A DNA stretch of 64,000 nt. Source: Escherichia coli. Lineage in GTDB: Bacteria; Pseudomonadota; Gammaproteobacteria; Enterobacterales; Enterobacteriaceae. Position numbers: made by a program. Positions 32,801-35,800 of the stretch are shown here, piece after piece. The stretch lies in NCBI RefSeq assembly GCF_045037415.1, contig NZ_CP173438.1; one strand, 5' to 3'. Position 1 is the first letter of the stretch. The number at the start of each line of letters is the position of its first letter.

Positions 32801-35800
32801 GAACGCACGCGGTTTCAATGGTCAGCAAGTCACCGCCCACTTCCGTCCACGCCAGACCGGTTACCTGGCCGACACGGTTTTCGTTATCCGCGCGCCCATA
32901 GTCGAAACGCTGAACACCGAGGTAGTCATGCAGGTTATCACCGTTAATTTCGATATGTTTTAATGACTTATCGAGCAGTAACTGCTTAACCGCTTTGCGA
33001 CACAGTTTGGAGATTTCACGCTCCAGACCACGCACGCCCGCCTCACGGGTGTAGTAACGAATAATGCCGATAATGGCGCTATCGTCGACGGTCAGCTCAC
33101 CTTTTTTCAATGCATTACGTTCAATCTGCTTCGGCAGCAGGTGACGTTTGGCGATGTTCAGTTTTTCATCTTCGGTATAACCGGAGAGGCGAATCACTTC
33201 CATACGATCCAGCAACGGTGCCGGAATGTTCATGGAGTTCGACGTAGCGACAAACATTACGTCGCTGAGATCGTAATCCACTTCCAGGTAGTGGTCGCTG
33301 AACGCTACGTTCTGCTCTGGATCCAGCACTTCAAGCAGTGCGGAGGCCGGATCACCACGCATGTCAGAAGACATTTTGTCGATCTCATCGAGCAGGAACA
33401 GCGGGTTTTTCACGCCCACTTTCGCCATTTTCTGGATCAGTTTACCCGGCATAGAACCGATGTAAGTACGGCGGTGACCACGGATTTCCGCTTCATCACG
33501 CACGCCGCCCAGCGCCATACGGACATATTTACGCCCGGTGGCTTTGGCGATGGACTGACCCAGGGACGTTTTACCTACCCCCGGCGGCCCTACCAGGCAG
33601 AGGATCGGACCCTTGATTTTGTTGACACGGCTTTGAACCGCAAGATACTCAAGGATACGATCTTTCACGCGCTCCAGACCATAATGGTCGGTATCAAGGA
33701 TTTCCTGCGCCTGACGCAGGTCTTTTTTGACCTTGCTACGCGCATTCCACGGCACCTGTACCATCCAGTCGATATATCCACGCACTACGGTCGCTTCTGC
33801 CGACATCGGAGACATCATTTTCAGCTTCTGCAGCTCTGCTTCCGCTTTCTCTTTTGCCTCTTTCGGCATCTTCGCCGCGTCGATTTTGCGCTTCAGGGCT
33901 TCGTTTTCGTCCGGCGCGTCGTCCATTTCACCGAGTTCTTTCTGAATAGCTTTCATTTGCTCGTTCAGATAGTACTCACGCTGGGATTTCTCCATCTGCT
34001 TTTTAACGCGGTTGCGAATGCGTTTCTCAACCTGCAGCAGATCGATTTCCGATTCCATCATTGCCATCAGATATTCCAGACGTTCGTTAACGTCGGACAT
34101 CTCCAGAACGGACTGTTTGTCAGCCAGTTTCAGCGGCATATGTGCAGCAATGGTATCCGCCAGACGCGCCGGATCGTCGATGCTATTCAGCGACGTCAGC
34201 ACTTCTGGTGGGATTTTTTTGTTTAGCTTGATGTAGCCTTCGAACTGGCTGATTGCAGTACGCACCAGCACTTCCTGTTCCCGCTCATCAATGGTCGGCG
34301 ACTCCAGATACTCCGCCTTCGCAGAAAAGTGTTCGCCATTGTCAGAGAGCGCAGAAATACGCGCGCGCTGTAACCCCTCGACCAGCACTTTGACGGTGCC
34401 GTCAGGCAGTTTCAGCATCTGCAATATAGAGGCCACGGTCCCGACGGTGAAAAGATCGTTTACACCCGGCTCATCCGTTGAAGCTTCTTTCTGCGCGACC
34501 AGCATAATTTTTTTATCATGGTCCATCGCCGCTTCCAGACAACGGATGGATTTTTCCCGCCCGACAAATAAGGGGATGACCATGTGCGGATAAACCACCA
34601 CATCGCGCAGCGGCAATACGGGGATTTCAATGCGTTCAGAACGCTCAGGATTCATAGAGCTCTCTCTTAGTTTAATTTCCGCCAGGTAATCAGATGACAC
34701 GACTGTGCTTCACGCCATCTATTAACATGTACGTCAGTATATGGGGATGTTTCCCCCACATTCAACGCCGAGAATAGAGGAAAAATTAAAGGGGAGATAA
34801 AATCCCCCCTTTTCGGTTAACTAATTGTATGGGAATGGTTAATTATTCACCAGATGCCTGTTGCGCTTCCGGCTTACCATAAATCAGCAACGGTTTGCTT
34901 TGACCATCAATTACCGACTCGTCGATAACCACTTTTTCGACATCTTCCATGGACGGCAGATCGTACATGGTATCGAGCAGTGCGGCTTCTACGATGGAAC
35001 GCAGGCCACGGGCACCGGTTTTACGCGCCATCGCTTTCTTAGCGATAGCATCCAGCGCCTCGTCACGGAATTCCAGATCCACGCCTTCCAGATTAAACAG
35101 CGCCTGATACTGCTTGGTCAGGGCGTTTTTCGGCTCTTTGAGGATCTGAATCAGAGCTTCTTCGCTCAGTTCATTCAACGTTGCGACAACCGGCAGACGA
35201 CCAATGAACTCAGGGATCAGACCAAACTTGATCAGATCTTCCGGTTCAACCTGCGCCAGCAGTTCACCTTCGCTGGCTTTGTCGGACTTGGCTTTCACCG
35301 TCGCGCCAAAACCAATGCCGGAGCCGGTTTCAACACGATTGGCAATCACTTTATCCAGGCCAGCAAATGCGCCGCCACAGATGAACAGGATCTTAGAGGT
35401 ATCAACCTGCAAGAATTCCTGCTGCGGATGTTTACGCCCACCTTGCGGCGGAACAGCAGCTACCGTACCTTCGATCAGTTTTAACAGTGCCTGCTGTACG
35501 CCTTCACCGGAAACGTCTCGGGTAATGGACGGGTTGTCTGACTTACGAGAAATCTTGTCGATTTCATCGATGTAGACAATCCCGCGCTGCGCTTTCTGTA
35601 CGTCGTAATCGCACTTCTGCAACAGCTTCTGAATGATGTTTTCAACGTCTTCGCCCACATAACCGGCTTCGGTCAGCGTGGTTGCGTCAGCCATGGTGAA
35701 CGGAACGTCCAGCAGGCGCGCCAGCGTTTCGGCCAGCAGCGTTTTACCGGAACCGGTCGGACCGATCAGCAGAATGTTACTTTTGCCCAACTCGACGCCA

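Follow-up and report, generated by a model that had tools for sequence, protein, structure and literature searches.

Classical sigma-32 promoters of lon and clpPX in the tig-clpPX-lon-hupB-ppiD region of an Escherichia coli chromosome

Results

It was found that the 64-kb window (the whole stretch of DNA analysed) is almost certainly part of an ordinary E. coli chromosome in which tig, clpP-clpX, lon, hupB, and ppiD are separate transcription units, and in which lon and clpPX each have a classical sigma-32 (RpoH) promoter. All six genes lie on the minus strand between 29757 and 38410, in the same order as K-12 b0436-b0441. On this point the NCBIfam equivalog models and the RefSeq annotation of identical DNA agree with the preliminary description, which had reported the genes as collinear.

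The tig gene (trigger factor; 37112..38410; NCBIfam TIGR00115, 478 bits; annotated in RefSeq on identical DNA) is followed at 37050..37081 by an intrinsic terminator hairpin and T-run, consisting of a 14-pair stem and then TTTTGTCATG. The clpP gene lies at 36243..36866 (TIGR00493, 370 bits) and clpX at 34843..36117 (TIGR00382, 718 bits). A consensus scan placed a sigma-70-like promoter close to clpX (ATGCCA-N18-TATACT, 36207..36243, minus strand), with a start site at 36207 that corresponds to the K-12 start site 456560. The lon gene (32301..34655; NF008053, 1818 bits over residues 1-784) encodes 784 amino acids from the ATG at 34655; the GTG at 34700, which gives the longest mechanical ORF, was rejected as the start after alignment with the K-12 start. 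Its terminator (32237..32270) is a 14-pair stem with a T-run. The remaining genes are hupB (31820..32092; NF007945), with an 11-pair stem and T-run as terminator (31762..31787), and ppiD (29757..31628; NF008054, 1175 bits).

The window is collinear with K-12 429,280-493,684 in reverse orientation at an identity of 97-98.5%; the overall divergence of the strain from K-12 is about 2%. Positions 29500-38700 are 100% identical to many E. coli chromosomes, and this 9.2-kb block is present over at least 80% of its length in 5,418 of 5,426 complete E. coli genomes. Only a single base differs from K-12 MG1655 in the region between clpX and lon (b0438-b0439) and a single base in the tig-clpP intergenic region, both outside the promoter elements. 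The former is an A/G change upstream of the clpX terminator hairpin, functionally nothing of note, and the latter is a C/T change right after the tig stop codon. The -35 element, spacer, -10 element, start-site region, 5′ UTR, and start codon of lon are all identical to those of K-12, as are the sigma-70-type and sigma-32 promoters and the 5′ UTR of clpP-clpX. Thus, the view that the regulatory architecture is canonical and intact stands: every promoter element aligns with its K-12 MG1655 counterpart without a difference, and an IS186 insertion is absent.

The lon promoter (34728..34765, minus strand) consists of TTGAAT (34765-34760), a 13-nt spacer (34759-34747), and CCCCATAT (34746-34739). 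These motifs had been described before, at 34737-34768 for lon and at 36946-36975 for clpP; they are indeed present at those places, but the exact positions were off by 1-3 nt (34739-34765 and 36945-36974, respectively). The reference sigma-32 promoter dnaK P1, whose open complex has been solved by cryo-EM, has CTTGAA at -35 to -30 and CCCCATTT at -15 to -8 (PMC10216364). The lon and clpP promoters resemble it in having a CTTGAA-type -35 element, a spacer of 13 nt (lon) or 14 nt (clpP), a -10 element of the CCCCATNT type (a weak match in clpP), and a start site 7-8 nt downstream. The 13-nt spacer of lon is that of dnaK P1. The lon -35 element (gTTGAAT, 34766-34760) matches TTGAAA at five of six positions; it differs from dnaK P1 in its sixth position, which is T, and in the base before TTGAA, which is G and not C. 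The lon -10 element matches all seven specified positions of CCCCATNT, including the CC of the "extended -10".

Start sites are taken from the data of Cho 2014 and Kim 2012 (PMC3923258, PMC3415461). The K-12 lon start sites 458037 (Cho 2014) and 458039 (Kim 2012) map to A 34730 and A 34728 of the window, leaving 8 nt and 10 nt between the -10 element and the start. The register of dnaK P1 predicts a start at 34731, only 1 and 3 nt away from the mapped ones. Site 458037 was assigned D+H in Cho 2014, whose "found motif" column is permissive and gives many sigma factors per start site. The sigma-32 ChIP-chip region SigH_47 (457462-458642, K-12 v2 coordinates), which like the other such regions is about 1 kb wide, covers a K-12 lon promoter sequence identical to that of the window.

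The lon promoter was then compared across at least 120 Enterobacterales loci. TTGAAT-N13-CCCCATAT is found exactly in all 118 species, among the matches listed, that have enough upstream DNA, while the spacer between the two elements occurs in at least 55 distinct variants across the same 118 species. A candidate regulatory hairpin in the lon 5′ UTR was rejected, since it folds with an energy that is not out of the ordinary (z = -0.32).

Is the lon promoter essentially a sigma-70 promoter (TTGAAT-N18-TATACT), with the sigma-32-like reading secondary or incidental? A sigma-70-like scan found the -10 hexamer TATACT at 34741-34736 on the minus strand, overlapping the end of CCCCATAT, and the combination matches the sigma-70 pattern at nine of twelve positions. 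Kim 2012 recorded the start at 34728 in cells growing exponentially at normal temperature. The A, c, and T following the lon -10 element (TATAcT) are conserved in 111/112, 93/112, and 112/112 distinct Enterobacterales sequences among the matches listed, so that the final T is invariant. However, an 18-nt spacer with a 9/12 match makes a mediocre sigma-70 promoter, and the CCCC before ATAT, which has no role in sigma-70 recognition, is invariant in the 118 species among the matches listed. The site also lies under a sigma-32 ChIP region, and its start bears the D+H assignment. Since a dual promoter accounts for all of the lon data, the rival is confined to the version with sigma-70 alone, and this version is very unlikely.

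Might the conserved block instead owe its existence to a plus-strand gene for an antisense small RNA (SraA), with the promoter-like motifs as a by-product? The Rfam family sraA (RF02029) matches 34727..34822 over its full length with 105.6 bits (gathering score, 56) at the expected clpX-lon position; it runs antisense over the lon promoter and stops at the clpX terminator. A table of Salmonella sRNAs (PMC3384567) places SraA between clpX and lon, and the predicted RNA folds with -28.6 kcal/mol (z = -2.55). On the other hand, two invariant blocks separated by a free 13-nt spacer are the signature of a promoter. The GGGG/CCCC hairpin at the 5′ end of the putative E. coli RNA is not conserved outside Escherichia in the Enterobacterales lon loci among the matches listed, for example in Yersinia (gtaagacattcgt), and no conserved block was found in these loci at the place expected for an sraA promoter. 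Moreover, the MG1655 RefSeq feature table does not list sraA, and Kim 2012 gives it no expression mark. Thus, beyond the Rfam match, neither the RefSeq table, Kim 2012, nor conservation gives evidence of an independent expressed gene. Both the lon promoter and the clpX terminator, which the match overlaps, are conserved for reasons of their own, and an SraA gene as the source of the conserved block is highly improbable. The clpX terminator hairpin (34788..34812) is readable on both strands, being terminator-like on the minus strand (34812-34788) and on the plus strand (34791-34807); it would serve as the end of the sraA match too.

The sigma-32 promoter of clpP (36938..36974, minus strand) consists of CTTGAAA (36974-36968), a 14-nt spacer, ACCCATAA (36953-36946), and a start at A 36938. 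The form in which it had been described, CTTGAAA-N15-CCCATAAC, is present as an alternative frame (36952-36945 for the -10 element), the canonical frame being TTGAAA-N14-ACCCATAA. The -35 element is a perfect match to CTTGAA(A). The -10 element is a weak match, agreeing with CCCCATNT at five of seven specified positions, and differs from that of dnaK P1 in that both the first C and the last T are replaced by A. Better versions of it occur at the same place in other genera (CCCCATAA and CCCCAGAT), and most of 73 Enterobacterales loci have a motif of the TTGAAA-N13/14-CCCCAnnT type upstream of clpP.

Two K-12 start sites, 455801 and 455829 (v2 coordinates), are known for clpP from Cho 2014 and Kim 2012 (PMC3923258, PMC3415461). 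Site 455829 maps to 36938, exactly 7 nt past the -10 element, as the dnaK P1 register predicts; it was assigned D/S/N/H by binding plus motif, and the ChIP region SigH_46 (455362-456349, K-12) covers the promoter. Mapped K-12 start sites thus fit the proposed elements of both promoters. Site 455801 maps to 36966 and belongs to an upstream sigma-70-type promoter (36966..37001, minus strand) with TTAGCG (37001-36996), a 17-nt spacer, TATGCT (36978-36973), and a start at A 36966. This -10 hexamer overlaps the sigma-32 -35 element, and the start, which lies 28 nt upstream of the sigma-32 start, is the more abundant clpP start in both data sets. Being overlapped by a sigma-70-type promoter distinguishes both lon and clpP from dnaK P1. 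These overlapping promoters, TTAGCG-N17-TATGCT for clpP and TTGAAT-N18-TATACT for lon, were missed by the preliminary description.

None of the minor intragenic starts labelled "lon" or "clpX" in Cho 2014 (35250, 35066, 36478, and 36341 in the window) is preceded by a sigma-32-like motif. Neither lon nor clpP was found among the RpoH SELEX entries of PMC5493296; clpP is listed there just once, under RpoS. PMC10044804 holds nothing on regulon membership.

How specific are the motifs by themselves? Three matches to the pattern TTGAA-N12-16-CCCAT were observed in the window where 0.5 would be expected; two of them are the lon and clpP sites. The third (TTGAA-N14-CCCAT, 12334-12358) lies in the spacer between acrB and tomB; scoring 10/13 and having no support, it was treated as a chance match. 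When mismatches to TTGAAA-N12-16-CCCCATNT are counted, lon scores 12/13 (one observed against 0.47 simulated, a mild enrichment only), and clpP scores 11/13, a class with seven observed against 8.7 simulated, which is not above chance in the window. Since these counts lie near the simulated numbers, the motifs alone are weak statistics, and sigma-32 motif matching cannot by itself tell the clpP promoter from the background of a 64-kb stretch. It is position, mapped start sites, and conservation that make the lon and clpP motifs real. Although strings scoring at least 11/13 are common and a third pattern match lies in the acrB-tomB spacer, the chance that both motifs are fortuitous and have no promoter function is negligible, given the mapped starts at the predicted distance, the sigma-32 ChIP regions over both sites, the invariance of the lon motif in 118 species among the matches listed, and the published loss of Lon in E. 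coli B through an IS186 between the two lon elements.

Are the neighbouring genes also under sigma-32 control? Upstream of tig, hupB, and ppiD, the best sigma-32-type motifs score 9-10/13, and none is credible. The K-12 start sites listed for these genes show D/S binding (D/S/N for tig) and no H, and in the published K-12 data the only sigma-32 ChIP regions within the block are those of clpPX and lon. The main hupB start, 32211 (K-12 460556; 13,333 reads), has "DS" binding, that is, sigma-70/sigma-38 only. A scan found a sigma-70-like promoter for ppiD, CTGACA-N18-(TG)CACAAT (31678..31725, minus strand), with starts at 31687 and 31678 (K-12 461080 and 461089, "DS"). A sigma-32 reading of the ppiD region, CTTGTGG-N12-CCCCGTTT (9/13), was rejected, as it has neither a matching start site nor a ChIP signal. 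Control of ppiD by sigma-32 was reportedly described in 1998. Since tig, hupB, and ppiD lack sigma-32 evidence, the earlier label of a heat-shock cluster fits clpPX and lon, on ChIP signals and motifs, but not these three genes. Gene adjacency does not imply co-regulation here.

The spacer of the lon promoter contains GGGGG-AAACAT-CCCC (34743..34757), the published insertion hot spot of IS186 (PMC3045373, PMC4618355), and it is unoccupied in the window. In the wording of the title of saiSree 2001, cited in the same two papers, the target consists of a run of G, a short spacer, and a run of C. The two papers also attribute the Lon deficiency of E. coli B/BL21 to the IS186 insertion. In BL21(DE3), a 1.35-kb IS186 lies between TTGAAT and CCCCATAT, and GGGGAAACATCCC is duplicated. 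The promoter is split by IS186 in 56 of 5,426 complete E. coli genomes (49 plus 7). The window therefore shares the promoter and the GGGGG-N6-CCCC target with the plon::IS186 alleles of E. coli B/BL21 and of laboratory-evolved strains and differs from them in lacking the insertion. Among the matches listed, the spacer sequence GTGGGGG is limited to E. coli and E. albertii of the 118 species, and the commonest variant is GTGTGGG (Citrobacter, Enterobacter, Salmonella, and others). Thus, one base of the Escherichia lineage (GTGGGGG versus GTGTGGG) completes the G5-N6-C4 target hit by IS186.

Discussion

The lon and clpPX promoters share one form, with a CTTGAA-like -35 element, a spacer of 13-14 nt, a CCCCATNT-like -10 element, and a start 7-8 nt further. 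From what is known of the RpoH regulon, sigma-32 would rise when unfolded proteins accumulate, and its holoenzyme would fire both promoters, giving more Lon and ClpXP. Heat-inducible, rpoH-dependent transcription of lon and clpP is reported to have been described by Nonaka in 2006 and in earlier work, including primer-extension studies. Basal expression may be supplied by the sigma-70-type promoter that shares DNA with each sigma-32 promoter; in lon, TTGAAT doubles as the -35 element for the TATACT hexamer that overlaps the end of CCCCATAT. On the evidence found, tig, hupB, and ppiD are neighbours with their own sigma-70/sigma-38-type promoters, outside the sigma-32 unit.

Since an Escherichia-specific base completes the IS186 target, lon could be read as having a lineage-specific, insertion-driven off-switch. 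It would then be no accidental hot spot but a contingency locus, of which about 1% of complete genomes, some clinical isolates among them, make use. I regard this reading as speculative and rather unlikely.

The lon and clpP promoters belong to the earliest sigma-32 promoters to become known; those of this region are textbook E. coli, already well described. The practical value of the result is annotation confidence, and it carries little weight as a discovery. With its lon promoter intact, the strain does not belong to the Lon-deficient B-type or plon::IS186 variants. Judging from the sequence, heat shock and protein-folding stress should elicit a normal response of clpPX and lon in this strain.

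Gene content and the two promoters

The six minus-strand ORFs at 29757-38410 are tig, clpP, clpX, lon, hupB, and ppiD, as the preliminary description had named them, according to NCBIfam equivalog models and the RefSeq annotation of identical DNA. Many E. coli chromosomes match this 9.2-kb block at 100% identity, and 5,418 of the 5,426 complete E. coli genomes carry 80% or more of it. In reverse orientation, the window as a whole aligns collinearly with K-12 MG1655 429,280-493,684 (97-98.5% identity), with three small indels only. These sole breaks in collinearity lie at 3559-3617, 55267-55269, and 62321-62322, where K-12 has about 125-230 more bases at each, possibly repetitive extragenic elements. 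Rfam also finds the dnaX programmed-frameshift element (265-329, minus strand) and the 4.5S SRP RNA (ffs; 16967-17063, minus strand), both expected for this chromosome region. The clpX-lon intergenic region and the tig-clpP one each have a single-base difference from K-12, which lies outside the promoter elements. Thus, the K-12 mapping of the lon and clpP promoters is directly applicable.

Between the clpX terminator hairpin (34812-34788, downstream of the clpX stop codon) and lon, the minus strand reads cggcgTTGAATgtgggggaaacatCCCCATATactgacgtacatg. It contains the -35 element TTGAAT (34765-34760), a 13-nt spacer (34759-34747), and the -10 element CCCCATAT (34746-34739). The lon gene starts at the ATG at 34655; the longest mechanical ORF begins at a GTG 15 codons upstream (34700), a trap for mechanical gene calling. 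The clpP upstream sequence, also on the minus strand, is ttatgCTTGAAAtatggtgatgccgtaCCCATAACacagggactagc, with CTTGAAA at 36974-36968 and CCCATAAC at 36952-36945. The proposed TTGAAT-N13-CCCCATAT and CTTGAAA-N15-CCCATAAC were therefore right in strings and counts, with coordinates off by 1-3 nt. In the usual sigma-32 frame, the clpP motif is TTGAAA-N14-ACCCATAA.

Are these motifs distinctive by themselves? The loose pattern TTGAA-N12-16-CCCAT has three matches in the window versus 0.5 expected, two of which are the lon and clpP sites. The third (12334-12358, plus strand, N14) lies in the long acrB-tomB spacer, just past the acrB terminator; its score against the sigma-32 consensus is only 10/13, nothing else speaks for it, and it is probably a chance match. 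The picture is weaker when matches out of 13 to TTGAAA-N12-16-CCCCATNT are counted, with expectations from simulated sequence: seven sites reach at least 11/13 (8.7 simulated), the clpP site scoring 11/13, and one, lon, reaches at least 12/13 (0.47 simulated). The motifs are thus readable mainly through prior knowledge of their location, and the case for function comes from start sites, sigma-32 binding, and conservation.

Mapped start sites and sigma-32 binding

Start sites in K-12 version-2 coordinates were carried over to the window. Kim et al. 2012 (supplement, PMC3415461) give, with upstream sequences, a lon start at 458039 (34728 in the window) and a clpP start at 455801 (36966). Cho et al. 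2014 (supplement, PMC3923258) list lon at 458037 (34730; 1,744 reads), attributed to both sigma-70 and sigma-32 by binding and by binding plus motif, and clpP at 455801 (3,166 reads) and at the less abundant 455829 (36938; 1,303 reads; sigma-70, sigma-38, sigma-54, and sigma-32). In the cryo-EM scaffold of dnaK P1, the reference sigma-32 promoter (PMC10216364), CTTGAA occupies -35 to -30 and CCCCATTT -15 to -8; the spacer is 13 nt long, and 7 nt separate the -10 element from +1. This register places the clpP +1 at 36938, exactly the second mapped start, and the lon +1 at 34731, next to the mapped adenines at 34730 and 34728. Thus, the mapped starts agree with the elements rather than conflict with them. 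The sigma-32 ChIP regions SigH_46 (455362-456349) and SigH_47 (457462-458642) span the clpP and lon promoters, respectively (Cho et al. 2014, PMC3923258); with a width of about 1 kb and K-12 as their source, they lend support but not precision.

Each of the two sigma-32 promoters overlaps a sigma-70-type promoter, an arrangement that the preliminary description had missed. At clpP, TTAGCG-N17-TATGCT (36966-37001 with its start, minus strand) lies an ideal 6 nt from the start at 36966, which falls within the sigma-32 -35/spacer region. Thus, basal clpPX expression has its own promoter, 28 nt upstream. The TATGCT overlaps the sigma-32 -35 element, and the two holoenzymes are probably in competition here. 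At lon, a sigma-70 scan joins the same TTGAAT to TATAcT with 18-nt spacing. The lon start is at 34728 in unstressed exponential cells (Kim), while 34730 dominates in multi-condition data (Cho); in my view, the two starts fit two holoenzymes sharing one DNA stretch.

Conservation and the sraA annotation

One genome per species was scanned with a lon N-terminal coding pattern, blind to the promoter, which yielded at least 120 Enterobacterales loci representing some 40 genera. TTGAAT-N13-CCCCATAT occurs exactly, no more than 400 nt from the start of lon, in all 118 listed loci with enough upstream DNA, while the 13-nt spacer takes 55 forms among the matches listed. Such a pattern, two invariant blocks held at a fixed distance with a free spacer between them, is the classical footprint of a promoter. 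The three bases past CCCCATAT are also kept among the matches listed (A in 111/112, C in 93/112, T in 112/112), giving TATAcT. At clpP, TTGAAA-N13/14-CCCCAnnT stands about 75-180 nt before the gene in most of the 73 examinable loci, and its -10 element is often better than that of E. coli (CCCCATAA, CCCCAGAT, CCCCAATT). Across Enterobacterales, the clpX terminator keeps its T-rich tail (cctTtt.tTTTtc; 34766-34790, minus strand), which adjoins the lon -35 element; speculatively, this tail may act as both a terminator tail and an UP-like element for lon.

Rfam places sraA (RF02029), a putative small RNA, at 34727-34822 (plus strand; 105.6 bits, gathering score 56). Running across the entire lon promoter, the match has its 5′ end next to the lon start site and the clpX hairpin as its 3′ end; this hairpin is also readable as a plus-strand terminator. 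A Salmonella sRNA table (PMC3384567) likewise has SraA between clpX and lon. However, several points argue against an independent gene: sraA is missing from the current RefSeq feature table of MG1655, Kim et al. 2012 give it no expression mark, its 5′ hairpin is an E. coli-specific G/C palindrome not retained in other genera, and no conserved block was found at the expected sraA promoter position among the Enterobacterales loci listed. The putative sraA is treated here as a candidate annotation in which Rfam largely picks up the conserved promoter and terminator again.

Extent of the heat-shock label

The label of a heat-shock cluster holds for clpPX and lon but not for tig, hupB, and ppiD. 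In Cho et al. 2014 (supplement, PMC3923258), the listed hupB and ppiD start sites have sigma-70/sigma-38 binding, those of tig sigma-70/sigma-38 and sigma-54 binding, and none of them sigma-32 binding. The best sigma-32-like strings upstream of the three genes score only 9-10/13. For ppiD, a sigma-70-like CTGACA-N18-(TG)CACAAT agrees with its mapped start sites. The ppiD gene was reportedly placed under sigma-32 and Cpx control in 1998. Every gene or operon of the block has a terminator of its own. From this evidence, five adjoining transcription units make up the block, and two of them are heat-shock units.

IS186 at the lon promoter

The lon spacer holds GGGGG-AAACAT-CCCC (34757-34743), described as an IS186 hot spot in PMC3045373 and PMC4618355, citing saiSree 2001. 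BL21(DE3) has a 1.35-kb IS186 inserted precisely between TTGAAT and CCCCATAT, with a duplicated GGGGAAACATCCC on both flanks. A 221-bp probe across the lon promoter is contiguous in 5,369 of 5,424 matching E. coli genomes, and junction probes found IS186 at the hot spot in 56 of 5,426 (49 oriented as in BL21 and 7 the other way round), which explains essentially all of the 55 broken copies. The carriers are mostly B-lineage or other laboratory strains, with a few clinical or environmental isolates. In isolate FELIX_MS533 (NZ_CP137696.1, 3001-5200), IS186 comes after clpX at the hot spot, with entD/fepA instead of lon directly behind it, which implies that IS186 mediated an inversion or deletion. 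Among 118 other Enterobacterales species listed, only E. albertii has the G5...C4 spacer; the commonest variant of the G-run segment among the matches listed is GTGTGGG.

The lon promoter in the window is uninterrupted and free of IS186. The observation of the preliminary description is confirmed and its interpretation supported with caveats, for a K-12-type regulatory region that was already known. Its claim of an intact regulatory architecture also stands, as the promoter elements are those of K-12 and the hot spot is unoccupied. Concretely, "intact" means that this strain has a lon promoter without IS186 at its published hot spot.
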